Shown: positions 1,601 through 64,000 of the stretch, piece by piece
How positions within the stretch are numbered: the first letter of the stretch is position 1
Layout: every line of letters starts with the position of its first letter
Position numbers and translations under genes: made by a program
The notes under the pieces: generated by a model
Seen by the model: only the letters and a program-made list of their open reading frames with translations
Database searches by the model: none
Told to the model about the DNA's origin: nothing
Assembly (NCBI GenBank): GCA_038060895.1
Contig: JBBTCT010000001.1
Location: 352,001-416,000 of the forward strand
Direction: 5' to 3'
DNA: 64,000 nucleotides
Origin: Planctomycetota bacterium
GTDB taxonomy: Bacteria > Planctomycetota > MHYJ01 > WSZJ01

Positions 1601-2287
1601 TCAACTCCCGCTGTTCTTCCCCGGGATGAACGGCTGGAGCCACTGCCCGAAAGCCGCGGCCTGCCGCGTCTGGAGCAGGAGCTCGCCTGGTCCGACGTAC
1701 TCCGCGACAAGCCACTCCCCTGAAGCGGCGGTGTTGAACACCCCTCCGGCGGCCTTTCGAATCGAGTACTGGATCGTGTCGCTGAAGGCGACGATGTGTC
1801 CCGTATCGACGATGTAATTCTCGCCGGCTGCGAGAGTCTTGCGGTGGATCGTGCCGAACGAGGCCACCATCGCAATCCCCTGCCCGCTCATGTGGAGCCA
1901 GAAAAGTCCGCCTGAGCTGAACGCGGCCTTGAACCCGCCCCACTTGGTATCGACCTCGATCCCCGTCGAGTTGCCGAGGTAGCAGCCGCGCTGGACAATG
2001 AGTCCGGCGCCCTGGACCGGCACGACCGCTATATCGCCGGGCATTGAAGGGGCCATCAGGATTTCGCCGGGGCCGCGGGTCGCGGTGGCGCGTGTGATGA
2101 AGAACGACTCGCCGCCGAGCATCTTGCGTCCCAGGGCTTTCAGGAACCCGCCCTCCATCTTGGCCTCGATGTCGATCGTCGGCGAGTGCCCGACCATCGC
2201 GCCGGACTCCATGCGGACCTGTTCGTTGGCGTCGAGCTGGACCTGGGCGAGGGCGTAGGCGCCCTGGTAGAGGACTGAAGCGCGCAT
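1601..2287 (-). CDS. TIGR00266/AIM24 family protein
   Basis: MRASVLYQGAYALAQVQLDANEQVRMESGAMV...GGESFF...YIVDTGHIVAF...SGEWLV..YVGPGELLLQTR; start taken at ATG 2287. Confidence 0.88.
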   Translation of the reverse strand: MRASVLYQGAYALAQVQLDANEQVRMESGAMVGHSPTIDIEAKMEGGFLKALGRKMLGGESFFITRATATRGPGEILMAPSMPGDIAVVPVQGAGLIVQRGCYLGNSTGIEVDTKWGGFKAAFSSGGLFWLHMSGQGIAMVASFGTIHRKTLAAGENYIVDTGHIVAFSDTIQYSIRKAAGGVFNTAASGEWLVAEYVGPGELLLQTRQAAAFGQWLQPFIPGKNSGS

Positions 2288-2312
2288 CGTGGGGTCTCCC
2301 GGAATGCAGTGT

Positions 2313-2380
2313 TGAGTGATGAGTACTGAGTGATGGGTAGTTTGCTGTGTGGAAGAGGCAGGAGGCAGGAAAAACGACTC
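2313..2380. repeat. Intergenic heptamer arrays (single arm)
   Basis: TGAGTGA TGAGTAC TGAGTGA TGGGTAG, then GAGGCAG x2, then AAAACGAC. Confidence 0.55.
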
Positions 2381-2475
2381 TTCAGGCCTGAACCTTGCCG
2401 GGAGTATGGTAAGGATCGCGTATCGCATTTAGAGCCTGGGTCGCCGCCTGTCCTGAAAACGCGGAGAAATTAGCT

Positions 2476-2979
2476 ATGGATTCCAGGACGCGTTGGTGGC
2501 TCGGGTTTGTTTTCCTCGCTTGCGCGGCCGAAGTCCTGGCGGACGATTGTCCGAACTGTCGCGACTCCCTGTGCGCCGAGCACGAGGCGGAGCACGCGGT
2601 CTGGGACGCGGACTTCGAGTTTTTCAAACAGGTGGCGCGGCTGCTCGGCGACTCCGGCGTCCTGGAGGCCTCCCGCGGCGTCGTCGATCTCCTGAAATCC
2701 ACTTCTTTTGACCTGCTCGAAGTCGCAGCGAACAACTGCAGCGGGATTCGGACTCACGAAGTCGCCACCGCCGTGCTCGAGGCGTATGGACGCGCCCGCG
2801 GTCTGGATCCCAAGGCCGGGAAAGTCTCGGTCGTGCTGCTCCAGGACTGGAACGCGATCACGAAATCGGACATCCGCGCTCCAAAGGGCGCCAACAAGGA
2901 AGACTTCGACCGTTTCATGGCGGCCTGCAGGGCCTGGCTCAAGGAGCACCCGGGCGATCCGGAGGGCTGGCTCAAGTAG
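2476..2979 (+). CDS. Hypothetical secreted protein with an N-terminal CxxC-x4-C-x2-H motif
   Basis: Signal-like N-terminus (WWLGFVFLACAAEVLA), then DDCPNCRDSLCAEHEAEH; codon usage typical of this window. Confidence 0.65.
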   Translation: MDSRTRWWLGFVFLACAAEVLADDCPNCRDSLCAEHEAEHAVWDADFEFFKQVARLLGDSGVLEASRGVVDLLKSTSFDLLEVAANNCSGIRTHEVATAVLEAYGRARGLDPKAGKVSVVLLQDWNAITKSDIRAPKGANKEDFDRFMAACRAWLKEHPGDPEGWLK

Positions 2980-3037
2980 CGCCCCGCGCCTGTCTTTCTC
3001 CTTGCGCCGCGGAACCCCGGGGAATAGGTTCGCCGTG

Positions 3038-3463
3038 ATGAAGCAGGTGTCGCGCACGATCGCGTTCGATTCCCACGCGCCCTTCGAGTTCGTCGACATC
3101 ACCTCCCGCGTCCGTGACGAAGTCCGCGGCGCGGGCGTGAAGACGGGGACCGTCACCATCGTTTCACGGCACACAACGGGCGGCATTGCGATCAACGAGC
3201 GCGACCCGGAGCTCCAGGCGGACATGGTCGACTGGATGAAGAAACTGTTCCCGCCGCGCGCCGGCTATCGGCATGACATCGAACCGATCGACGACCGCCT
3301 CAACGCGCACGCGCACCTCGCCTCGCTCACCCTGCGCACTTCCGAGACGCTCCTCGTCAAGGACGGCGACCTCGACCTGGGCCCGTGGCAGGCCGTCTTC
3401 TTCGTCGAATGCGATGGCTCCCGCACCCGCGAAGTCGCGCTTCTGGTCCAGGGGACCGAATGA
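3038..3463 (+). CDS. yjbQ: YjbQ/UPF0047 family protein
   Basis: FVDIT...SRHTTGGIAINE...YRHD...NAHAH...LDLGPWQAVFFVECDG; stop overlaps the next start (ATGA). Confidence 0.92.
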   Translation: MKQVSRTIAFDSHAPFEFVDITSRVRDEVRGAGVKTGTVTIVSRHTTGGIAINERDPELQADMVDWMKKLFPPRAGYRHDIEPIDDRLNAHAHLASLTLRTSETLLVKDGDLDLGPWQAVFFVECDGSRTREVALLVQGTE

Positions 3464-4746
3464 CCGCCGAAGCGGCGTGGTTCGCGGAAGGCTCGCTCGA
3501 CCTCGCGCGCTACGTCCTCGCCACGAACGTCTTCGAGACCGACCGCGAACCGCGGGAGGCCGCGGCTCACCTGGCTCAGGAACAGTCCACGGCCCAATGG
3601 AAGCGGCCCGGCGTCGACGAAGATTTCCGGCCGCGGCACGGGGCGAAGGTCGTGTCGGTGACCGTTCTTGGAGATCTCAACGGACCGTCGACGCCCACGC
3701 CCTTTGACGGCGCGGGTCCATGGAAGCGATGCGTGGCGGTCATCGCTCATCCCGTCGAGAATTTCGGCGCGAAGCTCCCGAATCTCCTCACGGTGCTGCT
3801 CGGCGAAGGCACCTTCTACTCGCCCGGAATCTCCGCGATCCGGCTCACCGACATCGCCCTCCCCGACACGTTCGCAAACCTGTTTCCCGGACCGCAATTC
3901 GGAGTCAAGGGTCTGCGGGACCTCCTCGGAGTCGAGGAGCGCCCCTTCTTCATCGGTGTCGTCAAGCCAAACGTCGGCCTTCCGCCGGCGGAGTTCGCGG
4001 CGCTCGCGGAAGAAGCCTGGAAGGGCGGGCTGGACGCGGCGAAAGACGATGAGATGCTCGCGGACGTCCCGTGGTCCCCGCTTGCGGAACGAGCGAAGCT
4101 TTGCGGCGACGCGCGGAGGCTTGCGGAAGCGGAAAGCGGCGAGAAAAAGATGTACGTCGCCAACATCACGGACGAGATCTCGAGGCTGAAGACGCTTCAT
4201 CACGACGCCGTCGCCGGGGGCGCGAACGCCGTGATGCTCAACGCGCTTCCGCTCGGCCTGCCGGCATGCCGTTTCGTGCGGGAATTCGCAACCGTCCCGC
4301 TGCTGGCTCATTTCGACATGGTGGCCGCGATGAGCCGAGCCCCGGCCGTCGGTGTCGATTCGCACGTCATGACGCTTCTCCAGCGCCTCGCAGGATTCGA
4401 CGTCATCCTCTTCCCCGGCACGGGCGCGCGGATGCGCACCACGGACGAGGAGGTGAAAGCGAACATCGAGTCCTGCCGGCGCCCGCTCGGAACGATTGCG
4501 CCGGCTCTCCCCGTGCCCGGCGGATCGAGCCGCCCCGCCGACCTGCCGGCCGCCCTGCGCCTCTGCGGCGGCACCGACTTCGGCATGGTCCCGGGCCGTG
4601 CCGTTTTCAATCACCCCGACGGGCCGCGGGCGGGGGCGAAGAGTTTCCGGCAGGCCTGGGAGGCGGTGTGCCGGGGTCGCTCGCTGGCCGAGCACGCGAT
4701 CTCGGCCGCGGAACTGGCAAAATCCCTCACGGAATTCGGGAGCTGA
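3460..4746 (+). CDS. RuBisCO-like protein (form IV, resembles the IV-Photo clade)
   Basis: EQSTAQWKRPGVDEDFR, GVVKPNVGL, KDDEML carbamate motif, VPGG, VPGRAVFNHPDG; no small subunit or PRK gene nearby. Confidence 0.92.
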   Translation: MTAEAAWFAEGSLDLARYVLATNVFETDREPREAAAHLAQEQSTAQWKRPGVDEDFRPRHGAKVVSVTVLGDLNGPSTPTPFDGAGPWKRCVAVIAHPVENFGAKLPNLLTVLLGEGTFYSPGISAIRLTDIALPDTFANLFPGPQFGVKGLRDLLGVEERPFFIGVVKPNVGLPPAEFAALAEEAWKGGLDAAKDDEMLADVPWSPLAERAKLCGDARRLAEAESGEKKMYVANITDEISRLKTLHHDAVAGGANAVMLNALPLGLPACRFVREFATVPLLAHFDMVAAMSRAPAVGVDSHVMTLLQRLAGFDVILFPGTGARMRTTDEEVKANIESCRRPLGTIAPALPVPGGSSRPADLPAALRLCGGTDFGMVPGRAVFNHPDGPRAGAKSFRQAWEAVCRGRSLAEHAISAAELAKSLTEFGS

Positions 4747-50770: not shown

Positions 50771-51619
50771 GTGAAGCCCCTATCCGCCGTCGCCGCCGTG
50801 CTCGCCCTGGCCGCCGCGCCGGCTTTCGCAGACGACGCTACCGACCGTCTCAACAAGGCCGTGGAGGCGCTTTCCGCGCAGGACGGCTATGTCCTCGCGG
50901 CGCAGTGGCGGCTCGACATCGAGAAGGTGAAGGAGCCCGTCAAGGGAACGGTCGAGTCGCTCGTGCGGCACAGGGAGGACTTCCTCAAACTGCACGCGAA
51001 GTTCGACGAAGGCGAAGTGACGGTCTACCAGAAAGGCGCGCAGATCGCGGGTCAGAACGCGGAGACAAAGCAGTGGGGCCCGATTTCCGACGACGCGAAA
51101 GCGAAGTTCGTGCTGAAGATGTTCAACCTGAAGGCGTTCCTGACGGAAGCGGCCGGGATGGCGACGAACGCGCGGCTGTCGAAGGGCGACAAGGACGAGG
51201 AGTTGCACCTGGAGTTCGAGGCGGACAAAGAAAAGCTGAAGAAGCTGCTCGGCGACGCCGAGGCCGGAAAAGCGCTCACGAACGGGACGCTCGACAACGC
51301 GACGATGAAAGTGGCGATCGACTTTGACCGGAAGTCGGGTGTGCCCCGGCGTGTGACGGTGGACATCGAGGGGGATTCGACGCACACGCCGCGCAAGGCG
51401 GCCAGTCCTCCGCCCGATGACGGCTTCAAACCGTGGACAGGCGAAGATGACGCGCCGCCCGCGAAAGACGACAAGAAAGATGACGGCGCGAAAAAACCCG
51501 AGGAGCCGCCGGCCCCGATCGTCGAGCACATCAAGGTGCACCTCGAGGCCATCCCGGACTACAAGCAGTCGCTCGACGCGGAAGTGCCGGAGGCGGTCAA
51601 GAAGGTGCTGGGGCTGTAG
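50771..51619 (+). CDS. Hypothetical secreted protein, apparent paralogue of 49731-50642
   Basis: NATMKVAIDFDRKSGVPRRV; DYKQSLDAEVPEAVKKVL. Confidence 0.7.
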   Translation: MKPLSAVAAVLALAAAPAFADDATDRLNKAVEALSAQDGYVLAAQWRLDIEKVKEPVKGTVESLVRHREDFLKLHAKFDEGEVTVYQKGAQIAGQNAETKQWGPISDDAKAKFVLKMFNLKAFLTEAAGMATNARLSKGDKDEELHLEFEADKEKLKKLLGDAEAGKALTNGTLDNATMKVAIDFDRKSGVPRRVTVDIEGDSTHTPRKAASPPPDDGFKPWTGEDDAPPAKDDKKDDGAKKPEEPPAPIVEHIKVHLEAIPDYKQSLDAEVPEAVKKVLGL

Positions 51620-51651
51620 TCCTCAGCGGGACGGCAGGATTCTGCCGGAAA

Positions 51652-51680
51652 GTCGTTCCTACCCACTACCAACTACCTCC
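51652..51680. repeat. Single-arm copy of the 17293-17373 heptamer element
   Basis: GTCGT followed by TCCTACCCACTACCAACTACC (51657-51677), identical to 17351-17371. Confidence 0.7.
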
Positions 51681-51692
51681 TGGTCACTGCCG

Positions 51693-52184
51693 TCACTTCT
51701 TCTTCGCTTTCCCCTCGCCCAGGATCGACGACTTCCCTTCCGCCGCCGTCCCCGCCGCGAACGTCTTTTTCTTCGCGTCCCAGGCCAGCCCGGCGCCGGA
51801 CTTCTTCCACCACGCCTCGAAGTCCTTCTTCGCTGCGGAGCAGCTTTCGAGGCTCTCGTGGTCGCAGGTGATCCCCGCGCCCGTCACGCTTGAGAGCGCG
51901 ACGGCCGCGCGCTTGCGGAATTCGTGGCGCTCGTCGGCGAGATGGGAAATCAGCTTCGGAAGCGCTTCTGCCTGCCCGAGCAGTGCCAGCGCGTACTGGG
52001 CCGCGACCCTCACTCCCTCGGACTCGTCCTCGGCGAAGCCCAGGACCGTCTTCACCGCATCGGGCCCGCCGAACACGCCCAGGTTGGCGACGCCGTTGGC
52101 GCGCCGGCCGGGATCGCGCTGTTTGACGTCGAGCAGGGCCTTGTCGTAGCCGTTGGACGGGACGCCGGGCATGCGCTGAAACAT
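51693..52184 (-). CDS. HEAT-repeat protein
   Basis: DESEGVRVAAQYALALLG; LADERHEFRKRAAVALSSVTG; AWW. Confidence 0.75.
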   Translation of the reverse strand: MFQRMPGVPSNGYDKALLDVKQRDPGRRANGVANLGVFGGPDAVKTVLGFAEDESEGVRVAAQYALALLGQAEALPKLISHLADERHEFRKRAAVALSSVTGAGITCDHESLESCSAAKKDFEAWWKKSGAGLAWDAKKKTFAAGTAAEGKSSILGEGKAKKK

Positions 52185-52257
52185 TCACGAACTCCTGAGA
52201 GGTGAGGAAGCGAGCGATGTTACGGGCCTCGGGCCGATAATGCCAGCGGCCAGCGGA

Positions 52258-52968
52258 TCAGGAACGGCGGCCTGAGTGCAGCGTCACTCCCCCGAACGCA
52301 AAGGAACGAATCGTGACGTCGACGAAGTCATTGGTTCGCATGAGGTCCGCGAACTGGGCGGCCGTCAGGTGCGCGGCCACGGAGTCGCGGTAGTAGGCGT
52401 AGGCGTTGTGTTTCGAGCCGGTGATCAGGCGGCCCAGCCACGGGACGACGCCGCGGCAAAGCATGTTAAAGCCGAGGCGGCCGAGACAGCCCTGCGGGGG
52501 GCCGGACTCGAGGACGTGGAGTCGGCCGCCGGGGGCGAGAACGCGGGCGAGTTCGCGAAGAGCTGCGGCGGTATCGGAGACGTTGCGGATGCCCCAGCCG
52601 ACCGTGGCGGTGCGGAAGGCGCCGTCGCGGAATGGAAGTCGAAGCGTGTCGGCGCGTCCAAGGGCGACCGGTGCTGTTCCTACTTTTGTTTTCGCGACGT
52701 CCAGCATCCCCCGCGTGAAGTCGGTCGCCGCAACGCGCGCCCCCGGCGCTTCTCGCAGAATCGCCAGCGCGAAATCCCCCGTCCCGCAGCACGCGTCCAG
52801 CGCCCACCCGCCCCCTGCGAGGTCCTTCGCCGCATCCCGCGCCGCCGCCCTCCTCCAGGCGTGGTGACGCCCCCCGGTCATCAGGCCGTTCACGAGGTCG
52901 TAGCGCGCGCTGATGTCGTGAAACATCGCCTGGATTTGAGAAGAGTCCTTCGACGGGGCAGGGCTCAT
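52258..52968 (-). CDS. ubiE: UbiE/MenG family C-methyltransferase
   Basis: MFHDISARYDLVN.LMTGGRH..WRR, LDACCGTGD, LPFRD, RELARVLAPGG, AYAYY..S. Confidence 0.88.
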   Translation of the reverse strand: MSPAPSKDSSQIQAMFHDISARYDLVNGLMTGGRHHAWRRAAARDAAKDLAGGGWALDACCGTGDFALAILREAPGARVAATDFTRGMLDVAKTKVGTAPVALGRADTLRLPFRDGAFRTATVGWGIRNVSDTAAALRELARVLAPGGRLHVLESGPPQGCLGRLGFNMLCRGVVPWLGRLITGSKHNAYAYYRDSVAAHLTAAQFADLMRTNDFVDVTIRSFAFGGVTLHSGRRS

Positions 52969-53429
52969 GCTTCGTCTCCCGCCCAACGCGCCGTTTGCCG
53001 ATGCCGACCCAATCCGACCGTGTCGAATTCGTCGCAGCCGGAAGCGGCACGAACTCCGAGCCGGCGAAGTATCAGGTTGATGGCATCCGGGGATTCGAGC
53101 GGGCCTAGCACGACTTCCCCGCCCTCCATCCCGACGGCCCACTGGGATCCCTCGCCGCCGAAAAAGTCAGCAGAAATGAAGGCCAGGAATTCGGATCGGG
53201 AAGCCTCTCGTATCCACCGGGCCACGGCGGGGACGCTTCCAGGTATCCCCTTGAAAGCGGCGTCTGGAGCAAATCCGAAACGCTGCTCGAGTTCTGCGAG
53301 CAGGCGATCAGTCAGCGGAATCAGTGCTACCCCGTAGGACAGCTTGACGACGCAGGCATGCTCTCTCGTCCGTCCTGCGAACTGCACCACTTGTTCAATT
53401 CCAATCACGGCGTCGAGGGTGTAGCTCAC
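52965..53429 (-). CDS. Hypothetical protein
   Basis: A.ISADFFGGEGSQWA...INLILRRLGV...DEFDTVGLGRHR; ATGA overlap with ubiE. Confidence 0.7.
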   Translation of the reverse strand: MSYTLDAVIGIEQVVQFAGRTREHACVVKLSYGVALIPLTDRLLAELEQRFGFAPDAAFKGIPGSVPAVARWIREASRSEFLAFISADFFGGEGSQWAVGMEGGEVVLGPLESPDAINLILRRLGVRAASGCDEFDTVGLGRHRQTARWAGDEA

Positions 53430-53450
53430 GGGGCGGGTATTCTACGCGCC

Positions 53451-54017
53451 ATGACCCCCGACATGGACTCGCCCACAACCCCGGAGAAACGCCGCATGGC
53501 TCTTTCCACGTCGCAGATCCTCTCGTACTGCGTGCTCGGCACGATCATCGTGGTGCTGACGATCATCGCGATCCGCACGCGCGGAACAGCAGGCGTGAAA
53601 GAAGCCGGAAAGTCCGGTGGCGTGCTGTTCCTCTCCGTCCTCCCGAACCTGCTTCTCGGCTTCACGATCGCCGGCTTCCTGCAGGTCCTCCTGCCGAAGG
53701 ACACGATCGTGCGCTGGATGGGCGAAGACTCCGGCTTCCGCGGCATCCTCGCCGGCTCGCTCGCCGGCACGCTCACCCCGGGCGGGCCGTTCACGCACTT
53801 CCCCATCCTCGCGTCGTTCCTCAAGGCAGGCGCCGGAGTGGGCCCCGTTTCCGCTTACATCGCCGGATGGGCCCTCCTCGGCGTCAATCGCATCATCGTC
53901 TGGGAGCTGCCCATTCTCGGCTGGCGCTTCGCCCTCGCCCGAATCGTCGCGTGCCTGTTCGTGCCGCCGGTCGTCGGGCTGCTGACCCAGCTGCTGTTCC
54001 GTGGAAGAGTCGCTTGA
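53451..54017 (+). CDS. Predicted permease (DUF318/ArsP-like half transporter)
   Basis: LLLGFTIAG....P...I.RWMG.DSG.RGI..G...G..TPGGP...FP. Confidence 0.8.
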   Translation: MTPDMDSPTTPEKRRMALSTSQILSYCVLGTIIVVLTIIAIRTRGTAGVKEAGKSGGVLFLSVLPNLLLGFTIAGFLQVLLPKDTIVRWMGEDSGFRGILAGSLAGTLTPGGPFTHFPILASFLKAGAGVGPVSAYIAGWALLGVNRIIVWELPILGWRFALARIVACLFVPPVVGLLTQLLFRGRVA

Positions 54018-54028
54018 GCGAGGTCGTC

Positions 54029-54553
54029 ATGTCTACGAGCTGCAAGACCTGCGGTGGACAGTGCGAGATGGGAAAGTCCTGCAATGCCTGCGGCTACGAC
54101 CCGATGTCGCACCGCGACGAACAAGTCGTGGCGCGGGTCGGGGCCCAGGGCGACGGCGCTTTTCGCGGGGACAGGAACCGGCTGTGGATTCTCACGACGG
54201 AGCGCGTGGTTTTCCTGAAGAACGGCACGCGGAGCAACGAGTCGAAACTTGGAGGAGTCCGCGAGGCGACGTATGCGGGGAAGCGGAATCTGGGCGTCCT
54301 CGGCCTGCTCATCGCCGTGGCCGTGATTTCAACCTTGTCAGCCGTTTCGCAGGTTGGAAGCGTCGTGTTGCTTGTGTCGCCTGTGGCGATGGCTCCCCTC
54401 CTTCTGGTGTGGGCCTTCTGGCGTGAGGCCTGCATCACGATCGTGAAGAACGATGATTCGTCGTTCGTCGAGCGCGTTCTTCCGGGGCATGCGAAAAGCG
54501 CCGAACAATTCGTGCAGGCCGTGCAGGACCAGCTCAGGCTGCGGCGCTCTTGA
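54029..54553 (+). CDS. Hypothetical zinc-ribbon membrane protein
   Basis: CKTCGG...CNACG followed by two TM helices. Confidence 0.65.
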   Translation: MSTSCKTCGGQCEMGKSCNACGYDPMSHRDEQVVARVGAQGDGAFRGDRNRLWILTTERVVFLKNGTRSNESKLGGVREATYAGKRNLGVLGLLIAVAVISTLSAVSQVGSVVLLVSPVAMAPLLLVWAFWREACITIVKNDDSSFVERVLPGHAKSAEQFVQAVQDQLRLRRS

Positions 54554-54563
54554 ACGGCGATGC

Positions 54564-55043
54564 CTACCGAAGGTGCTTCGCGAGCATGTCCCACGATTCC
54601 GCGAGCGTCAGCGGCAGCACTTTCGTGTCGCCCAGCAGCGGCATGAAGTTCGTATCTCCGTTCCAGCGGGGGACGACGTGCAGGTGGACGTGCCCGGGGA
54701 GCCCTGCACCCGCCGCCCGGCCGAGGTTGACGCCGACGTTGTAGCCATGCGGCTTCATCGCGCGATCCAGCGCCTGCTTGGCCTCACCGGTGAGGCGCAT
54801 GAGTTCGAGCGACTCGGCGTCCGTCAGCTTCTCGATGTCCGCGACATGGCGGTACGGCGCGACCAGAAGATGGCCGTTGTTGTAGGGGTACTTGTTCAGG
54901 ATGACGAAGCACTTCTTTCCGCGCTTGAGGATCAGGTTTTCGCGGTCCTTCTTCTGCTTCGGCAGCCCGCACAGGAAGCAGGCCTCGCCCTTTTCGGCTT
55001 CCTTGATGTACGCCATCCGCCACGGCGCCCAGAGCCGCGCCAT
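54564..55043 (-). CDS. HIT-family nucleotide hydrolase
   Basis: LWAPWR, CFLC, LNKYPYNNGHLLV.P.RH, AGAGLPGHVHLHVVPRW.GD.NF. Confidence 0.93.
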   Translation of the reverse strand: MARLWAPWRMAYIKEAEKGEACFLCGLPKQKKDRENLILKRGKKCFVILNKYPYNNGHLLVAPYRHVADIEKLTDAESLELMRLTGEAKQALDRAMKPHGYNVGVNLGRAAGAGLPGHVHLHVVPRWNGDTNFMPLLGDTKVLPLTLAESWDMLAKHLR

Positions 55044-55108
55044 CGCCCCCGCCATGCTCCCGCCCCGCTTCGCCACCGCTCCCCCCCTGGGCCTGGCCGT
55101 TTGGCTGT

Positions 55109-55199
55109 CCCGCTTAAGCGAAAAAGTCGAGGGGATACGCGGCGCGCGCAGTCCTTTAGTGCGCCCCGCGTATCCCCTCGACTTTTTTGCTTAAGCGGG
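55109..55199. repeat. Long hairpin abutting the tRNA 3' end
   Basis: 55109-55147 pairs with 55161-55199 at 37/39; GCTTAAGC at both ends. Confidence 0.8.
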
Positions 55200-55265
55200 C
55201 GATGGGATTCGAACCCACGACGTCGACCTTGGGAAGGTCGCATTCTACCACTGAATTACGCCCGC
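55194..55265 (-). tRNA. tRNA-Gly (CCC), CCA not encoded
   Basis: GCGGGCG TAATTCAGTGGTAGAAT GCGACC-TTCCCAA-GGTCG ACGTC GTGGG-TTCGAAT-CCCAT CGCCCGC T. Confidence 0.96.
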
Positions 55266-55314
55266 GAACGACGGGTCAGCATAGCGACGGAAGAGGTCGA
55301 GTCAAGCCCGGCGG

Positions 55315-55686
55315 TCAGTGCCGCTCCGTGACCGAAGCCCCTTCGCCACCACCCATGAGCTGCACCTGGGCGCTTCCCTGGCCGTCACCCGTGGAGTGGA
55401 ATTCGATGATGCAGCGGCCGGTCACGGGCATCTCCATGTCCCCGCCGGCATCGAGGGGAAAGCACTGGTCGTCGTCGCAGACGGACAGCGGCTGGTCGCC
55501 CGTGTTGACGACGCGCAGCGTTCCTCCCCCGGAAGCCACAACGAGGAGGTGGAATCCCTTCGATCCGATGGCGAACGCGAGCTCGCGGTCGGAGGACTTC
55601 GCCGGCTTCGCGGACTCCTCCTTCTCGCTCGAGGAGCATCCCGCCACAAAGACCATCCCGGCGAGCAAGGCGGCGAGTCTGGGCAT
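55315..55686 (-). CDS. Small hypothetical lipoprotein
   Basis: GGAGGAG RBS; MPRLAALLAGMVFVAGC. Confidence 0.72.
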   Translation of the reverse strand: MPRLAALLAGMVFVAGCSSSEKEESAKPAKSSDRELAFAIGSKGFHLLVVASGGGTLRVVNTGDQPLSVCDDDQCFPLDAGGDMEMPVTGRCIIEFHSTGDGQGSAQVQLMGGGEGASVTERH

Positions 55687-55694
55687 CTCTCCTC

Positions 55695-56036
55695 CTATCG
55701 AAGGTTGACCGTGTTGTACCGCCCCTCGGCCACGAAATGCACTTCGACCAGCCCTTCGCCGATCCCGCGACGCTCCAGATGGATGACGTGCTGGCCCCGG
55801 AGCACGATCTCTTTGTCGTCGCTCGTGTTCAGCAGGTAGATCTCTTCCCCGTGCCTCACCGCCACCGGGCAGGCGCCCCGGTTCAGGACGCGGATCGTGG
55901 CAAGCCCGGCATGGACGTCGATCGCGCGCTCCTCGCCGGCAATGTCCACCTTGAAGTCGCCGGTCGCCTTCACGTACGAACGGCACCCCGCCACCGCGAG
56001 CACCAGCGCGATGACGACCGCGAATCGTCTCATCAT
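55695..56036 (-). CDS. Small hypothetical lipoprotein
   Basis: MMRRFAVVIALVLAVAGC; ATGA overlap with serS. Confidence 0.72.
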   Translation of the reverse strand: MMRRFAVVIALVLAVAGCRSYVKATGDFKVDIAGEERAIDVHAGLATIRVLNRGACPVAVRHGEEIYLLNTSDDKEIVLRGQHVIHLERRGIGEGLVEVHFVAEGRYNTVNLR

Positions 56037-57316
56037 GACTTCTTCTCCGGAACGAGCCGGTCGGTGCCGAGGTACGGACGCAACACCTCGGGAATCACAA
56101 CGCTTCCGTCCGCTTCCTGGAAATTCTCGAGAATGCCGATCACGATGCGCGGGAGGGCGAGGCCGGAGCCGTTGAGCGTGTGGACGAAGCGGACTTTTCC
56201 GTCTTTGTCGCGGAAGCGGATCTGGGCGCGGCGGGCCTGGTAGTCCTCGAAGTTGGAGCAGCTGGAGACTTCGAGCCAGCGGTCGACGCCCGGGGCGTGG
56301 ACCTCGAGATCGTACTGTTTCGTGTTGGAGAAACCCATGCCGACCGTGGCGATGAAGACGCGGCGCCACGGAAGGCCGAGGCGCTCGAGCAGGGTCTCGG
56401 CAGCGCGGGTGAGGTTCTCGTGCTGGACGTACGAGTCGTCCGGGTGCGTCCAGTTCACGAGCTCGACCTTGTCGAACTGGTGCACGCGGATCATGCCGCG
56501 CGTGTCCTTGCCGGCAGCGCCCGCTTCGCGGCGGAAGCACTGGCTGAAGGCACAGTGACGGATCGGCAGCCTCTCCGCGGGGAGGATCTCCTCGCGGTAC
56601 ATGTTCGTGACCGGGACTTCCGCCGTCGGGATCAGGTACAGCGCGTCGTCCTTCAGCTTGTACATCTCCTCCTCGAACTTCGGCAGCTGCCCCGTCCCGA
56701 CCATCGTGTCGCGCAGCACCAGCACCGGCGGATAAATCTCCTCGTACCCGTGCTCCTTCACGTGCGTGTCGATGAACCACGCCACGAGCGACCGCTGCAG
56801 CTTCGCCCCCATCCCGCGGAACATCACGAACCCGCTCCCGGAAATCTTCGCCGCCCGCTCGAACTCCGTAATGCCGAGCTTCGGCCCGAGGTCCCAGTGC
56901 GCGAGCGGCTTGAACGCGAACTTCTTCGGCTCCCCGCCGCTCCTCACCACCTTGTTGTGCGTCTCCTCGTCCCCCACAGGCACGTCCGGGTGCGGGATGT
57001 TCGGGATGTACATGAGAAGAGCGTCGCGCTCCGCTTCGAGTTTCTTCGCGTCCTCCTCCAGCGCCTTCCTCCGGTCCGACAGCTCCTTCATTGCCACCTT
57101 CAGCTTCTCCGCCGCCGGCTTGTCCTCTTTCATCAGCCGGCCCATGTCCTTGTTCGCGGCGTTCTGCTCCGCCTGGAGCTTTTGCGCCTCCGTCGTCACC
57201 TTGCGCCACTTTTCGTCGGCGGCAAGGACCGCGTCGAGGTCGGCCTTCGCCTTTTTCGCGACGATCGCCGCGCGGACGCGATCGGGCTGCGTGCGGATGG
57301 TGTTGATGTCGAGCAT
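56033..57316 (-). CDS. serS: Serine--tRNA ligase
   Basis: MLDI, GTGQLPKF, LIPTAEVP, CFRREAG.AGKDTRG.IRVHQFDKVE, EVSSCSN..DYQARR, HTLNGSGLA. Confidence 0.98.
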   Translation of the reverse strand: MLDINTIRTQPDRVRAAIVAKKAKADLDAVLAADEKWRKVTTEAQKLQAEQNAANKDMGRLMKEDKPAAEKLKVAMKELSDRRKALEEDAKKLEAERDALLMYIPNIPHPDVPVGDEETHNKVVRSGGEPKKFAFKPLAHWDLGPKLGITEFERAAKISGSGFVMFRGMGAKLQRSLVAWFIDTHVKEHGYEEIYPPVLVLRDTMVGTGQLPKFEEEMYKLKDDALYLIPTAEVPVTNMYREEILPAERLPIRHCAFSQCFRREAGAAGKDTRGMIRVHQFDKVELVNWTHPDDSYVQHENLTRAAETLLERLGLPWRRVFIATVGMGFSNTKQYDLEVHAPGVDRWLEVSSCSNFEDYQARRAQIRFRDKDGKVRFVHTLNGSGLALPRIVIGILENFQEADGSVVIPEVLRPYLGTDRLVPEKKS

Positions 57317-57359
57317 TTCGCGAAAAGCTCCTTTTGTGATTCGGACGGCTGGCCACTAT

Positions 57360-57428
57360 AGCGGGGAGCGGGCGGGCGGGCGAGCGGGCGGGTGGGCCCG
57401 CGTGCCCGCCGGCCCGCTGGCCCGCCCC
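57360..57428. repeat. Degenerate inverted octamer arrays (GCGGGCGR / GCCCGCYG)
   Basis: Same unit as 36101-36226; lies between divergent serS and rhomboid genes. Confidence 0.6.
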
Positions 57429-57475
57429 TGCCTTGTGGCGCCCCCCGTTCCCCGGCCCTCCGTTATCATGGGGCC

Positions 57476-58303
57476 ATGGGTTACGACGATCGTGAGTACT
57501 TCCAACCCACCGACAGCCTCCGGAAGCGGTGGACCCTCAACTGGATCTTCATCTACGCGAGCGTCGCCGTCTTCGTAGCGGCGATGCTCTGGCAATACGT
57601 CATTTTCCGCGGCTCCACCCTGTCCATCGCGTTGCTCGACTGGTCCGTCCTGAAACCGGTCAATGTCATCGAAGGCTTCCAGGAGTGGCGCCTTCTCACT
57701 CACCTCTTCCTCGATATCAGCCCGCTCTCGCTCCTCTTCAACATGCTCGCGCTCTACTGGTTCGGGAATGATCTCGAAGAGCTCGTGGGGACCCGGTCCT
57801 ACGCGCTTCTCTTTGCCGGCGGAGCTCTCGTCTCGGCGCTCACGTTCGTCGGCCTCGGCTACCTCATCTGGCCGGGGAGCATGTTCACGGGCCCCAGCGG
57901 CGCTCTCATCGCCGTGATGGTCGCCGCGGCCATCACCTGGCCCGACCGGCAGGTCATCTGCCTCTTCTTCCCCGTCAAGCTCAAGTACCTCGTCCTCATC
58001 TGGATCGGCCTCGACGTCTACACCTCCATCACCGTGCTCGGCGTCGCTTCGCTCGGCCACCTCGCCGGCGCCGTCTGGGCCTTTGGTTACTGGAAACTCA
58101 AGGACCGCGTCGCCGACCGGCTCGAGACCATGGACAACCGCGCCGAGATCCGCGCGGACCGGAAGGAACGCGAGCATGTGATGGAACGTGAGGCGGAGAT
58201 CGACGAGATTCTCAAGAAGATCTCCGTCTCGGGAATCAACTCGCTCACCGAGCGCGAGCGGCGCGTCCTGGAAGTCGAGAGCGAAAAGAAGAGGTCGAGG
58301 TGA
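57476..58303 (+). CDS. Rhomboid intramembrane serine protease with a C-terminal helical tail
   Basis: WRLLT..F, FNMLAL, GPSG, GHLAG, EIDEILKKIS.SG..SLTE.ER. Confidence 0.88.
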   Translation: MGYDDREYFQPTDSLRKRWTLNWIFIYASVAVFVAAMLWQYVIFRGSTLSIALLDWSVLKPVNVIEGFQEWRLLTHLFLDISPLSLLFNMLALYWFGNDLEELVGTRSYALLFAGGALVSALTFVGLGYLIWPGSMFTGPSGALIAVMVAAAITWPDRQVICLFFPVKLKYLVLIWIGLDVYTSITVLGVASLGHLAGAVWAFGYWKLKDRVADRLETMDNRAEIRADRKEREHVMEREAEIDEILKKISVSGINSLTERERRVLEVESEKKRSR

Positions 58304-59115
58304 AGCCCTCGACAAAGATCGGCATCGCGGCCTCCGCCGGGGTCATCGCGCTCGTCGCCGCGATGCACGCGGCTCTTCCAGCGCTTTCCCGGAAGTTCGG
58401 CGGAGCCGAAACCGGTCTCGACAGCTTCGAGGGGCGGGTCGTGACCGCGTTTGCAGAGAATCCCGAGGAAGCGAAAAAGGGCGCGGTCGCCGCGGACGAC
58501 TTCTCGGAGGCGTTCGTGCGGCGGTGGGAAAAGTCGCGCGGAGCAAACCTCCCGACGTCGAGCGTCAAGCTCTACCTCTTCCCCAACCAGGCTGCGTTTT
58601 CCCGCCACGGCCTGGTTCGCATGAGCAATGCGCTCGAGTTCAACGGCGGCTACTTCAGCGCGGCGGAAGGCGCCATCGCCCTCGTGGCCGGCGACGACGC
58701 AGGACTGCGCCACGAGTTGACCCACATGCTCGCCTCCGCCTCGTGGGGTCCCGGTGCTGAGCTTTCGACCTGGTTCTCCGAGGGACTGGCCCAATGGCAC
58801 GAATCGGGGGTGGAGGGCGGCCCTGGCACCGGGGAAGCGAATGCGCGCGATCTCCTGGCCGCAGGCCGCTGGCTGTCTCTGCCCGATCTGCTCGATTCTT
58901 CCGGGGAAGCCTTCAAGAAGGCCGGAAACGACGTCTACTACGCGCAGAGCGCTTCCCTGTTCGCCTGGCTGGCAACCGTCCGTCCCGCGGCGCTCGAGCG
59001 CGTCGTGGCGCTGGAACGCCTGCCGGGAAAGGTCTCGATGGGCGAATTCGAAGAGGCGGTCGGCGAGAAAGCGGAGACGATAGAAGCGGACTGGCGGGCG
59101 TGGGCGCGGAAGTAG
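58300..59115 (+). CDS. Membrane-anchored gluzincin (peptidase MA/DUF1570-like)
   Basis: GGYF, RHELTH, WFSEGLA, YYAQS. Confidence 0.78.
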   Translation: MKPSTKIGIAASAGVIALVAAMHAALPALSRKFGGAETGLDSFEGRVVTAFAENPEEAKKGAVAADDFSEAFVRRWEKSRGANLPTSSVKLYLFPNQAAFSRHGLVRMSNALEFNGGYFSAAEGAIALVAGDDAGLRHELTHMLASASWGPGAELSTWFSEGLAQWHESGVEGGPGTGEANARDLLAAGRWLSLPDLLDSSGEAFKKAGNDVYYAQSASLFAWLATVRPAALERVVALERLPGKVSMGEFEEAVGEKAETIEADWRAWARK

Positions 59116-59124
59116 GCCCGGCTC

Positions 59125-59157
59125 AAAAAAAACGGGCGCCTCTTGCGAGGCGCCCGT
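59125..59157 (-). terminator. Intrinsic terminator for the minus-strand transcript
   Basis: A8 run with ACGGGCGCCTC-TTGC-GAGGCGCCCGT; starts 17 nt after the TAA at 59175. Confidence 0.85.
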
Positions 59158-59174
59158 CGTGAAGTCACTTCGAT

Positions 59175-60434
59175 TTACTTCTCTTTCTGCTCGCTCTTCA
59201 CGTCGCCGAACAGCTTCTTGTAACGGCTCTCGGACAGCTGGACTTTGAAGGGCCCCTTCGAATCGCCTACGCTACCTGCGTAGTCCTTCGGGGTACCCCC
59301 TCAGCACATCGACATCGAGCCCTTCTGCTCCTGGTCGCCTGTCTTCGCGTTGAGGACCTGGACGACCGGCATGAAGGCGGGCGGGGTGAAGCTGTAGTAC
59401 TCCTCGCCGCTGCTGCCGTAGACGTGCAGGGTGGAAACCATGATCGAAACGGTTCCGCCGCTGATGTCGAAGTCGAAGTCGATCTTGAGGTCCATGCCCC
59501 AGGCGATCTTGGTCGTGTCGTCCTTCTTGACGTCGACGGCGACCATGGTGCCCGTCTTCATGAGGGCGGACTGGCCGCCGGACGTCGCCTTGCACTCACC
59601 GCCGAAGAACAGGTAGCTGCCCGTCGGGACGACGGCGGCCTTGTCCTTGATGGTGCAGAGGTCGATGTAGGTCTGGCCGTTCTGGAACATCGCGGAGCCG
59701 AGCATGCCGAGCGACTTGTGGCCGCTGCGGGCGTCGAGCTTGCCCGTTTCGCCGGCGAACTCCTTGACCCAGATCTTCTTGCCGTTCTCTTCGACCTTGA
59801 GGCTGTAGAGCGTGCCGCCGAGGCTGACGACGTCGGACAGCGGCGTCGCGTACCCGGTCAGGCCGACGCTGACGGCGTCCTCGCCGTTCTCGTCGTACTT
59901 GCCGTTGTTGTTGTTGTCGAGGATGCCGAGCTGGGTCTTGTTGATGGTCGCCATCCAGAAGCCGCTGCGCTGCCAGTTCCAGCTGCCGCCTCCGCCCTTC
60001 TGGAAGCGCACCGCGTAGGGAGCGATGGTTCCGTCGGCGTAGGAGACGCTGACGAGGCACATGGCGCCGTCGGTCTTGATGCGTTCGTCCATCTTGCCGT
60101 CGTGGTTTGCATCGACTTCGATGGCGAACTGCTCGGCCTTGACGGCGACGCCGTCCTTGTCTTTGACGGGAAGCGGAATGACCTGGTTGCCGCCCTTGGT
60201 GGTGACGGCTGCGTAACCGCCGTGAAGCACTTTCATCGTCCAGTCTTTCACGGGGACGTAGGTGGCGTCGTAGGACTTCCACCCGAGCTCGGCGAGGCCG
60301 GGTTCGGCCTTGTTGGGGTTGCCGGACGGCTGTTCAGCGGCCGGCTTGCCCTTTTCAACGGTCGTGCCGCCGCCATCTGCGACCGCGAGGCCGCCGGCGA
60401 GTGCGAGCACGAGTGCGGGAACAACCCATTTCAT
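59175..60434 (-). CDS. Secreted protein, candidate selenoprotein (Cys377-Sec378; 419 aa with UGA readthrough)
   Basis: GGGAGGT RBS, signal peptide MKWVVPALVLALAGGLAVA, DxNxDG-like loops; in-frame TGA at 59301-59303 then GGTPKDYAGSVGDSKGPFKVQLSESRYKKLFGDVKSEQKEK-TAA. Confidence 0.72.
59250..59300 (-). promoter_or_regulatory. Candidate bacterial SECIS element
   Basis: Apical stem CTACGC-AGGTA-GCGTAG (59283-59267), loop begins 23 nt after UGA; lower pairing CGAA/TTCG and CCCC/GGGG. Confidence 0.62.
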
Positions 60435-60751
60435 GTGCGTACCTCCCTCAAAAGGAAAACCCGAAGCAATTATCTCGGCGGAGGCGGCCCGGCCGTAGGG
60501 AGCGCTTCCGCGGACGTTTCTCCCGTATCTAAAGAGAGTACCAATGAGGACGGGGAAATCTTCCCGCAATTTCATGGAAATGGAGAAATTTGAAGGGTTT
60601 ATAGATAAGTAATGTGATCAGGATTTGGAGCGGTTGTGAGTGGGGGCGCGGGCCGACGGGCGCGCCGTGTTGGCATGCGTTCGAACTGCGGAGACCGTGG
60701 CGCGCCCGTCGTGCCGGCGCCGCCCTTCTTCGCCCCCCTGCCCCCTCGCGT

Positions 60752-61642
60752 TCAGACGGATTCGGCCTCGGCAACCCCCGTCACCTGCAGGATCACCTCG
60801 GCAATCGCCCTTTCGCTGTCCACCGCAGCCATCATCTCGAAATAGTCCTCCTGCGGAAGCCCCAGCCGGGTCCAGGCTCGCTCGTCGAAATGGGCCGCGC
60901 CAAACGTCCCGGCACAGGCCACGCCTCGCGAACGGGCCGCGTAGTCCGCGAAGTACAGAGCCGCGGAAAGCAGGTCGTCGTCCCATGCCCCTTCGTCATG
61001 GTGCGAGTCGATCGCGTCCACGACGTCGCCGGGAAGATTCCAGGTCCTCGCCATCCAGGCACCGATCGCCGCGTGCCCGGTGGAGAACGCAACTCCCTCC
61101 GCCTCCGCGAACGACTCCTTCTTGTCCTCGGCGGCCTTCAGCACCGCCGCATACTCCTTCGGGAAATACCCGAGAATCGCGATCTTGCCCACGTCGTGCA
61201 GCAACCCGGTCAGGAACGCCTGCTCCGGGTCCTCGAGCCCGAGCCGCAGCGCCACGCGCTTCATCAGGCCCGCCACGACCGCGCTGTGCTGCCAGAACTG
61301 CGCGAAATCCTCGCGCTGCTTCTTCGAGATCGCCCGGAACACCCGGATGAGCGAAAGCGAGAGGACGAGATTCTTGATGCGGCCGTACCCGAGAAGCGCG
61401 ATCGCGCGGTTCAGGTCGGCGATTTTCTGCGGCAGGCCGAAGTACGCGCTGTTCACGAGCTTGATGATCTGCGCCGATAGCGACGGATCGCGCACGATCA
61501 CGTTGGAGACGTCCTGAGCGGAGGAGTCGGGATCCTCGAGCAGGTTCATCACGAACGATGTGATTTCGGGAAGCGTGGGCAGCGTGTCAACGCGCCGCTG
61601 GACGTCCTGGAGTGTGACAAGTGCTCGTGTTTGCTTGGCCAT
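60752..61642 (-). CDS. Stand-alone HDOD-domain protein
   Basis: LPTLP, DPSLSAQIIKLVNSAYFG, AIALLG, FWQHS, GLLHDVGK, HAAIG...W.LP, HH. Confidence 0.92.
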   Translation of the reverse strand: MAKQTRALVTLQDVQRRVDTLPTLPEITSFVMNLLEDPDSSAQDVSNVIVRDPSLSAQIIKLVNSAYFGLPQKIADLNRAIALLGYGRIKNLVLSLSLIRVFRAISKKQREDFAQFWQHSAVVAGLMKRVALRLGLEDPEQAFLTGLLHDVGKIAILGYFPKEYAAVLKAAEDKKESFAEAEGVAFSTGHAAIGAWMARTWNLPGDVVDAIDSHHDEGAWDDDLLSAALYFADYAARSRGVACAGTFGAAHFDERAWTRLGLPQEDYFEMMAAVDSERAIAEVILQVTGVAEAESV

Positions 61643-61690
61643 AGCTGGAGGGCGGACTTTACCAGAACCCGGCGGACGACGGCGATCCGC

Positions 61691-61722
61691 AAAAAAAGGG
61701 CGGGGAATCGCTTCCCCGCCCT
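61691..61722 (-). terminator. Intrinsic terminator of groEL
   Basis: AAAAAAAGGGCGGGGAA-TCGC-TTCCCCGCCCT. Confidence 0.88.
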
Positions 61723-61742
61723 CTCAGGTTCGAAGTCCCGCG

Positions 61743-63365
<1,623 letters not shown>

Positions 63366-63409
63366 CTTGTTCCCTCCTCGCTATGCGTTCAAAAAAGGTC
63401 TGTTTTGTT

Positions 63410-63805
63410 CTACCGCGTGGTCCGGTCCCGGAACAGCGACGAAAAGACCTGGATCGTCACCCTCGCCACTTCCATCTCAAACGGCCGCGGCAACCAGCTC
63501 CAGGCGCCCGCGTCCGCCGCCGCCAGCCTTGCTTCCTTCGATGCGGTCGCCCCGCCTACAAACATCACGGGAAACCGGACGACCAGTCGCAAGGCCGTCA
63601 GCAACTGCAAACCCGTCATGTCCGCGAAAGCTGCATCAATGATCCCGGCGTCGATCGGCACCCGCCGGGCTACTTCGAGTGCCCTGCGTCCGGTCTCTGC
63701 GACGTGAACCGAAGCGCCCAGTCCCGCAAGCACTTCCGACAGGGCCTCACGCGCCGGCAGGTCAGGTTCGGCGACGAGGATGTTGAAGTGGGGAGAAACA
63801 TTCAC
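63410..63805 (-). CDS. Single-domain response-regulator receiver (atypical)
   Basis: ILVAEPD...ALEV...GIID...DMTGLQL...GA..WLPRPF; GTG start assumed. Confidence 0.75.
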   Translation of the reverse strand: MNVSPHFNILVAEPDLPAREALSEVLAGLGASVHVAETGRRALEVARRVPIDAGIIDAAFADMTGLQLLTALRLVVRFPVMFVGGATASKEARLAAADAGAWSWLPRPFEMEVARVTIQVFSSLFRDRTTR

Positions 63806-63841
63806 GGGGTATGACCGACAGCGGTTCCTGCTGTGTGCAAA

Positions 63842-63857
63842 AGCAAACGCGGTGCCG
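63842..63857 (-). promoter_or_regulatory. Putative sigma-54 (-24/-12) promoter
   Basis: Minus strand CGGCACCGCGTTTGCT: GG-N10-GC, close to the consensus TGGCAC-N5-TTGC. Confidence 0.55.
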
Positions 63858-64000
63858 GGGGCCGCGCCGCTGATGCCCTCTGCTAAATGTTGCAGCCAAA
63901 AGACTTGCGTCGAGACCGCCGAAGTCAAATTCGGGCCAATCCCTGCCAGTCTGACCCGGGACACACGAAGGTGGCAGGAATCCGGGCCGGCCGAATTGAC

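Follow-up and report, generated by a model that had tools for sequence, protein, structure and literature searches.

A gene in a 64,000-nucleotide (nt) stretch of DNA from a Planctomycetota bacterium (assembly GCA_038060895.1, contig JBBTCT010000001.1, positions 352,001 to 416,000; hereafter the window) very probably encodes a genuine selenoprotein of a new family, as judged from sequence comparisons. Gene callers end this gene after 377 codons, at a UGA. On the reading that we favor, the cell would make one exported protein of 419 residues in which UGA-378 would be decoded as selenocysteine (Sec, written U in sequence motifs) by SelB and tRNA-Sec, and a stem-loop beginning 17 nt downstream of the UGA would guide this decoding. 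Planctomycetota harbor most of the family, and Sec forms predominate within it.

The gene lies on the minus strand, and its parts are as follows, in coordinates of the window:

60442..60447 (−): Shine-Dalgarno-like GGGAGG, 7 nt 5′ of the ATG, identified from the sequence
59304..60434 (−): first 377 codons, MKWVV...KGSMSMC, the portion annotated by gene callers
59301..59303 (−): in-frame UGA, putative Sec 378 in the motif M-C-U-G-G, assigned from the homologue alignment and the Cys forms
59267..59283 (−): core of a hairpin resembling a selenocysteine insertion sequence (SECIS), CUACGC (59283-59278), AGGUA (59277-59273), GCGUAG (59272-59267)
59178..59300 (−): 41-codon post-Sec tail, GGTPKDYAGSVG...PFKVQL...LFGDVKSEQKEK, conserved family-wide
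59175..59177 (−): TAA, the predicted true stop, read from the sequence
59123..59158 (−): intrinsic terminator (12-pair stem with 9 G-C pairs, loop of 4, T run), 3′ of the TAA

The ATG start codon (60434-60432, minus strand) was chosen on the alignment of orthologues, which begin at the same Met. Between TGA and TAA the same frame translates as GGTPKDYAGSVGDSKGPFKVQLSESRYKKLFGDVKSEQKEK (41 codons), and the read-through product has 419 residues with U at position 378. The 12-pair stem and T run of the terminator occupy 59158-59131, and the stretch between the two stops contains no terminator. G+C content at third codon positions (GC3) is 0.91 in the annotated open reading frame (ORF), and in the tail it is 0.80 in frame vs. 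0.55 and 0.37 in the other frames. An earlier note on this DNA, made from its letters alone, had pointed to a frame running on past the TGA (59303-59301) for 41 codons to a TAA, to coding-type usage within that tail, and to a terminator placed after the TAA rather than the TGA; all three observations were recovered in our analysis.

Independent public runs also contain the locus. A DNA contig of the unrelated run X3 matches 59100-59642 with 0 differences, and an RNA-library contig of a second study (X10), about 97% alike, spans 59238-60490, keeps the TGA and bridges it by 63 nt. The gene is present in metatranscriptome-library contigs of two studies; RNA libraries X4 and X5 cover 59523-60494 only, short of the UGA, and carry no weight either way.

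Homologues at the UGA and beyond it

The in-frame TGA and the tail that follows it recur across distant relatives. A six-frame search of 61 related genomes gave matches in 26. Same-genus orthologues with a full-length match are 64–88% identical, have a single TGA, and match to the end of the query; remote homologues from other families of the class and from the phylum at large are 28–37% identical, again with a single TGA and a match that reaches the last residues of the query. When TGA is read as U, U stands at the aligned position in 18 sequences of this sample. In a second sample, 401 genomes drawn from across the phylum were searched with a profile; 129 of them contain the family, and at least 57 contain the TGA form. 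At least 71 matches (counted by hand, with 150 matches listed and 62 more besides) carry one or two in-frame TGA codons each. Among the loci that we fetched, 44 distinct homologues keep both TGA and tail at identities down to about 28%. Across these 44 TGA-bearing genes U never varies and Gly usually comes next, and the tail conserves the motifs DY[AS]GGV, FKVxL, and [LF]G..K.E or PV[AT]V.VP.

The residues around U are more varied. Some members carry adjacent Cys and Sec, in motifs such as (G/P)GCUGGG, MCUGG, and PG[SNT]CU[GS], and others space the two residues apart, as in CLSUGG, CV[GT]UGG, CESUGG, CGTUGG, and ACTUGP. Further sites read PGSTUG, AGUDG, or EGGUGG, the last with a Cys farther along. 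At L065/L084, L072, and L102, two adjacent TGA codons would give Sec-Sec doublets (GGSUUGA, GASUUGS, and PESUUGT) where other members have Cys-Sec. The vicinal Cys-Sec pair that the earlier note had described is therefore a property of the source protein (M-C-U-G-G) and is not universal in the family, which includes CU, CxU, CxxU, and UU forms as well as U alone.

Protein databases hold mostly the part of the protein that precedes the UGA. We sorted 167 homologues from two protein-database searches against the family profile: 121 stop no more than three residues from the U column, 10 have Cys at that column followed by the tail, 13 have another residue there followed by the tail, 12 matched earlier parts of the profile only, and 11 could not be placed. 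Of the 121 truncated entries, 80 have Cys as the final residue, and in 93 a Cys occupies one of the last four positions. The same pattern holds at close range, where all 18 close homologues are "hypothetical" or unnamed entries of 299–394 residues, some of them from Planctomycetota metagenome-assembled genomes, and 17 of these end at the Cys. The earlier note's expectation that annotation pipelines would truncate the protein is thus borne out in both sets.

Full-length relatives that lack U at the site have Cys as the alternative residue. Three Cys forms read from DNA (L100, L101, and L105) show GGC-C-GGGF, GGS-C-GEGF, and PGNC-C-SIGF at the site, and the last of these mirrors PGNC-U-SIGF in another genome. 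The search that the earlier note had proposed, for homologues with Cys or UGA at position 378 and a conserved tail, thus returned both kinds, and the residue that replaces Sec is not the Trp or Arg that the note had named as a sign of nonsense mutation or sequencing error. A paralogue without Sec lies on the same contig of the source genome, outside the window (G000:C1:60176-61300, L046); it is 42% identical, reads SIC-P-QG, and has no hairpin.

The hairpin and the selenocysteine machinery

The hairpin CTACGC-AGGUA-GCGTAG lies exactly where the earlier note had drawn it, with a stem that begins 17 nt and a loop that begins 23 nt after the UGA. Its core is nested in a larger fold (59303-59246), and for the 60 nt that follow the UGA the folding energy is −27.1 kcal/mol vs. 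−17.9 ± 2.7 kcal/mol for 200 shuffles, none of which is as stable (0/200). All 18 first-round sequences form a 6–7 bp hairpin in the same place, with two covarying pairs. In the X10 RNA-library contig, the hairpin differs in the loop only (AGGUA to CGGGA, as in other species of the genus). A search of Rfam returned no SECIS family, and its four matches (E > 2) fall on the terminator or on the stop codon just upstream.

Covariation is clearest in an alignment of 43 distinct sequences (A3). Pair 34-42 is formed in 43/43 and occurs as GC (15), UA (14), AU (13), and CG (1); pair 30-46 is likewise formed in 43/43, as GC (24), CG (12), and UA (7). Pairs 33-43 and 35-41 are C-G in 42/43. The two remaining stem pairs are formed in 27/43, and the other 16 sequences make the lower stem with a bulged U. 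None of 500 shuffles reached the covariation score, and controls with slid partners were lower on every measure. An Ala, Ser, or Thr codon begins at column 34, and column 42 is the wobble position two codons farther on; amino acid change at the first position is thus tracked by a synonymous site, and the stem is kept.

The source genome, a draft of 47 contigs with 86.5% completeness, encodes the machinery for Sec insertion. The earlier note had asked for selA, selB, selC, and selD, and all four were detected, as tRNA-Sec (71.7 bits; called SeC(tca) by ARAGORN), selB (344 bits), selA (541 bits), and selD (364 bits), each above its curated cut-off. The selD gene of this genome (G000:C2:48628-49548, L018) itself contains one in-frame TGA, and its SelD is probably a selenoprotein too. 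The neighboring HDOD, serS, and rhomboid genes terminate at TGA, and TGA is thus not recoded throughout this organism's genome; in two relatives the second TGA is the stop codon of the family gene itself. More widely, selA is present in 290/401 sampled genomes of the phylum, and the Sec trait is very common there. Every point on which the earlier note had said that its reading would turn (Sec machinery in the genome, a conserved tail in homologues, and the residue found at the site in relatives) came out in its favor.

Several considerations nevertheless weigh against decoding of the UGA as Sec, beginning with the level of the evidence for recoding, which is that of sequence. The RNA-library contigs attest presence and not translation, because such libraries may hold DNA. 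Among the matches listed, all 57 genomes with a TGA form are selA-positive (57/57 vs. 290/401 overall), a count that overstates independence because genomes of one phylum are kin; two more genomes, with anti-sigma forms whose TGA lies beyond the matched region, are both selA-positive, and the selA-negative genomes that have the family (G021, G031, and G116) show TGA-free forms only among the matches listed. We take this co-occurrence as supportive, short of statistical proof. The hairpin persists in two of the three Cys-form genes examined (L101 and L105; it is lost in L100) and overlaps conserved codons, and part of its conservation may therefore reflect protein constraint or recent exchange between Sec and Cys; it is absent in 4/4 more distant paralogues without Sec. 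Finally, the bacterial SECIS criteria as stated in a recent review (an apical loop of 3–9 nt with G in its first two positions, 16–37 nt from the UGA, at −7.5 kcal/mol or below; PMC13188914) do not discriminate here. The source hairpin falls within them (AGGUA loop, 6-bp stem, spacing of 23 nt, −11.8 kcal/mol including the lower stem), and 35/44 sequences pass, but so do 128/220 shuffles (58%). Generic criteria thus carry no weight in this G+C-rich DNA, and the weight rests on covariation.

Two other explanations of the TGA were considered. The codon could be a true stop, or one subject to low-level near-cognate read-through, in which case the functional product would be the 377-residue protein with its terminal Cys and the tail a remnant. 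Two points favor this reading: gene callers annotate a stop at this codon, and the generic SECIS test does not discriminate here. Yet the tail is conserved as protein, free of frameshifts and stops, among sequences only about 28–37% identical and in the Cys forms joins the body without a break, the wobble base covaries with the first base of a codon while the stem is kept, the terminator sits 3′ of the TAA, and the TGA forms listed are confined to selA-positive genomes. We consider a true stop very improbable. Sequencing or assembly error, or a recent nonsense mutation that left a pseudogene in one genome, would be conceivable for a draft of this completeness and contig number, but the same TGA recurs in the 44 distinct homologues of other genomes and in independent public runs (the X3 DNA contig and the X10 RNA-library contig), which together refute this explanation and leave it next to no probability.

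Protein features, known selenoproteins, and gene neighborhoods

The predicted protein combines a putative export signal with loops containing Asp and Gly and a glycine-rich Sec site. Its features upstream of the UGA are the following:

60378..60434 (−): predicted Sec-type signal peptide, MKWVVPALVLALAGGLAVA then DGGG, from the sequence
60084..60113 (−): DANHDGKMDE loop, residues 108–117, in an N-terminal domain missing from short family forms
59877..59918 (−): DNNNNGKYDENGED loop, residues 173–186, in alignment A2
59397..59408 (−): GEEY motif, residues 343–346, with E344 and Y346 invariant and E345 nearly so

As read from the sequence, the N-terminus has a positively charged n-region, a hydrophobic core, and A-V-A, and a comparable hydrophobic N-terminus is found in every homologue whose N-terminus is complete. 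In the DNNNNGKYDENGED loop, D173 and D186 are invariant and G178, Y180, and G184 nearly so. Both loops and the hydrophobic N-terminus are present as the earlier note had described them. Calcium may be a ligand of the D-x-N-x-N-G loops, but of the Ca-binding repeat models EF-hand_5 (E = 0.062) and FG-GAP_3 (E = 0.036) each matched 1/22 members, below threshold. Family members share a layout of signal-like N-terminus, an optional N-terminal domain with the first D-x-N-x-D-G loop, second loop, GEEY, and Sec loop. From body segments with motifs such as VPxGxY and strand-like tail segments (PFKVQL and LFGxxKSE), the fold appears β-rich. Sec would sit in a Gly-rich, probably flexible loop about 40 residues from the C-terminus. 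The residues that are invariant in the family alignment are Asp, Glu, Gly, Pro, Met, and Tyr, with no conserved His or further Cys.

Domain searches did not place the protein in any known family. The best Pfam-A match was MliC (E = 0.21), with no consistent match across 22 family members, and NCBIfam release 20, which includes the NF0407xx Sao models, gave 0 families at E up to 1. Longer members (P0074, P0096, P0071, P0105, P0120, P0142, and P0166) show no informative Pfam domain. Sequence matches in the PDB were at chance level and were rejected (2xbt, E = 0.54 with the profile; 2p9w, E = 0.23 with the single protein).

Animal thioredoxin reductase has a C-terminal Gly-Cys-Sec-Gly redox center. 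The source protein resembles it in its Gly-flanked vicinal Cys-Sec, and many family members read G-G-C-U-G-G-G, a likeness that suggests a selenenylsulfide on a flexible segment. Unlike thioredoxin reductase, the source protein has no flavoprotein fold of the FAD/NAD(P)-binding pyridine nucleotide-disulfide oxidoreductase type by Pfam, continues for 41 residues after Sec, is predicted to be exported, and has no evident NADPH or FAD partner.

Previously described selenoproteins of bacteria show more general likenesses. A May 2026 review catalogues 119 prokaryotic selenoprotein families or subfamilies, each with a Pfam, TIGRFAM, NCBIfam, PTHR, or cd identifier (PMC13188914, Table 1). No Pfam, TIGRFAM, or NCBIfam model of that table matches the source protein (the table's PTHR and cd families were not compared through their own identifiers), and we therefore place it outside the 119 catalogued families, in keeping with the earlier note's impression that it resembled no known selenoprotein. 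DUF1573-domain and other "hypothetical" selenoproteins in that review are similar in having a short Sec motif recognized by Sec/Cys pairs and a SECIS; those families have domain identifiers, whereas the source protein has no match in Pfam-A or NCBIfam release 20. SaoL, SaoB, and HgcA, as described in 10.1101/2022.07.06.499078, share truncation by gene callers at CU and a SECIS hairpin inside the coding tail. They are cytosolic or ABC-transport proteins of anaerobes, in contrast to the apparently exported, β-rich family of Planctomycetota with its variable Cys position, and no sequence relationship to the source protein was found (no NCBIfam match, Sao models included). Our literature search found no published description of the family, although the supplementary tables S9 of PMC4807772 and S2 of PMC12013277 might list a member.

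The gene neighborhoods differ among lineages. The source gene is solitary, with an HDOD gene and groEL upstream and a convergent ORF without family assignment downstream. This ORF (58300-59115, plus strand, 271 residues, no Pfam or NCBIfam match) ends 60 nt from the stop of the source gene. When 20 distant loci, each with 7 kb on either side, were compared with 51001-64000 of the window, no window neighbor appeared in any listed cluster spanning at least three loci. The earlier note had remarked on serS about 2 kb away, possibly by chance; the gene lies at 56033-57316, about 1.9 kb off, and with no recurrence among the listed clusters chance is the most likely explanation.

Elsewhere the family gene occurs in three lineage-specific settings. 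At 7 of the 20 distant loci it is directly followed on the same strand by genes for 860-residue and 522-residue proteins (with sub-threshold Omp28 matches or none), MoxR (AAA_3), DUF58, and BatA; the MoxR-DUF58-BatA arrangement at L088 and L091-L096 resembles a Bat/aerotolerance operon. In one family of small genomes (three genera), selD (387.7 bits) comes 25–70 nt downstream of a Sec-form gene, with selA and then another selD after it, a linkage seen by sequence in G027 (L079 3234-8008), G029 (L032/L055), and G035 (L031) and by coordinates in G033:C35. The match of the second selD starts at model position 16, and this gene may start at a TGA. In the third setting, relatives of 620–635 annotated residues have one or two zf-HC2 motifs, a hydrophobic stretch that is probably a membrane span, a Pro-rich linker, and then the family domain, and a gene for an extracytoplasmic function (ECF) sigma factor lies directly upstream of these ZAS (zf-HC2) anti-sigma fusion genes:

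L097: ECF sigma and anti-sigma fusion at 178-876 and 940-2805 plus tail
L098: ECF sigma and anti-sigma fusion at 3928-4575 and 1879-3786 plus tail
L099: ECF sigma and anti-sigma fusion

The fusions have an in-frame TGA (PGAG-U-GFS and GSGSG-U-SSS), the hairpin, and a ...FG..ES.WK tail, and their public entries (P0133, P0134, and P0150) end at the TGA. Here the family domain forms the extracytoplasmic part of a ZAS factor; the source protein differs in having neither an anti-sigma part nor an adjacent sigma gene. Table 1 of PMC13188914 contains no Sec-containing anti-sigma family. Two further arrangements were observed, namely tandem family copies at L033 (G043:C113 318-1067 and 1348-2097), L083, L087, and L090, and a downstream gene for a tricorn-like S41 protease of about 1100 residues at L083/L084/L086/L087.

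Possible functions and significance

If the source protein is a genuine selenoprotein, its Cys-Sec pair could act after export as a reactive chalcogen center in the periplasm. This center would be a reversible selenenylsulfide, or a diselenide in UU forms, and it may react with oxidants, electrophiles, or soft metals and metalloids. Standalone proteins such as the source protein would then have a protective or binding role, and in the anti-sigma fusions the family domain would supply the sensing part of an ECF sigma switch: because it is fused to anti-sigma factors beyond a hydrophobic stretch, the domain would face the periplasm and could act as a sensor. The selD-selA and Bat-like contexts, each confined to one lineage, hint at selenium handling or oxidative stress.

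Granting Sec at position 378, a redox or oxidant-reactive center is our leading candidate, at somewhat less than an even chance. The Sec loop might instead bind a soft metal or metalloid (Cu(I), Hg, Zn, Ni, arsenic, or selenium), and in one version of this idea periplasmic selenium would be captured or sensed, feeding or reporting to the selD-selA pathway. CU and CC motifs of other bacterial selenoproteins have been argued to be heavy-metal sites (bioRxiv 10.1101/2022.07.06.499078), selD-selA immediately follows the family gene in one lineage, anti-sigma fusions suit a sensor of a periplasmic ligand, and chelation could tolerate the variable spacing of the Cys partner. The invariant residues, however, include no His or further Cys that could complete a metal site, the selD-selA linkage is limited to one family of genomes, and the conserved neighborhoods examined contain no metal transporter or resistance gene. 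Binding of a soft metal or of selenium is rather unlikely, and a function of some other kind is a shade less probable again; we rank redox reactivity above metal or selenium binding without strong grounds. Any such assignment must also contend with evidence that speaks against a function built on the Cys-Sec pair: some members have no Cys partner (AGUDG, PGAGUG, and GSGUS), paralogues without Sec do without the site altogether, the Pfam, NCBIfam, and PDB searches revealed no homology to any characterized protein, and the three genomic contexts differ by lineage, with none applying to the source gene.

With 386 cluster representatives among 1.84 billion proteins, this appears from its sequences to be a large selenoprotein family that is absent from the catalogue and is routinely cut short in annotation. 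Neither Pfam nor NCBIfam has a model for the family, which would enlarge the bacterial selenoprotein inventory, and one profile combined with the hairpin could let annotation pipelines mend the truncated entries. That the Sec form outnumbers the Cys form is unusual, and export is uncommon among selenoproteins. Several carrier genomes are assembled in 1–7 contigs, and bench work would be practical if any of these organisms is cultured.

The anti-sigma relatives open the question of selenium chemistry in envelope sensing. One tentative proposal, which we think improbable as a whole though worth stating, is that the family is a periplasmic Sec-based sensing or reactive module, in which the free form would capture an oxidant, electrophile, chalcogen, or metal, the ZAS fusion would sense, and the selD-selA lineage would couple selenium status to synthesis. 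If true, the fusions would be the first known receptor with a selenol as the signal-sensing group of an ECF sigma switch, and in the lineage with the selD-selA operon periplasmic selenium status would be coupled to selenoprotein synthesis.

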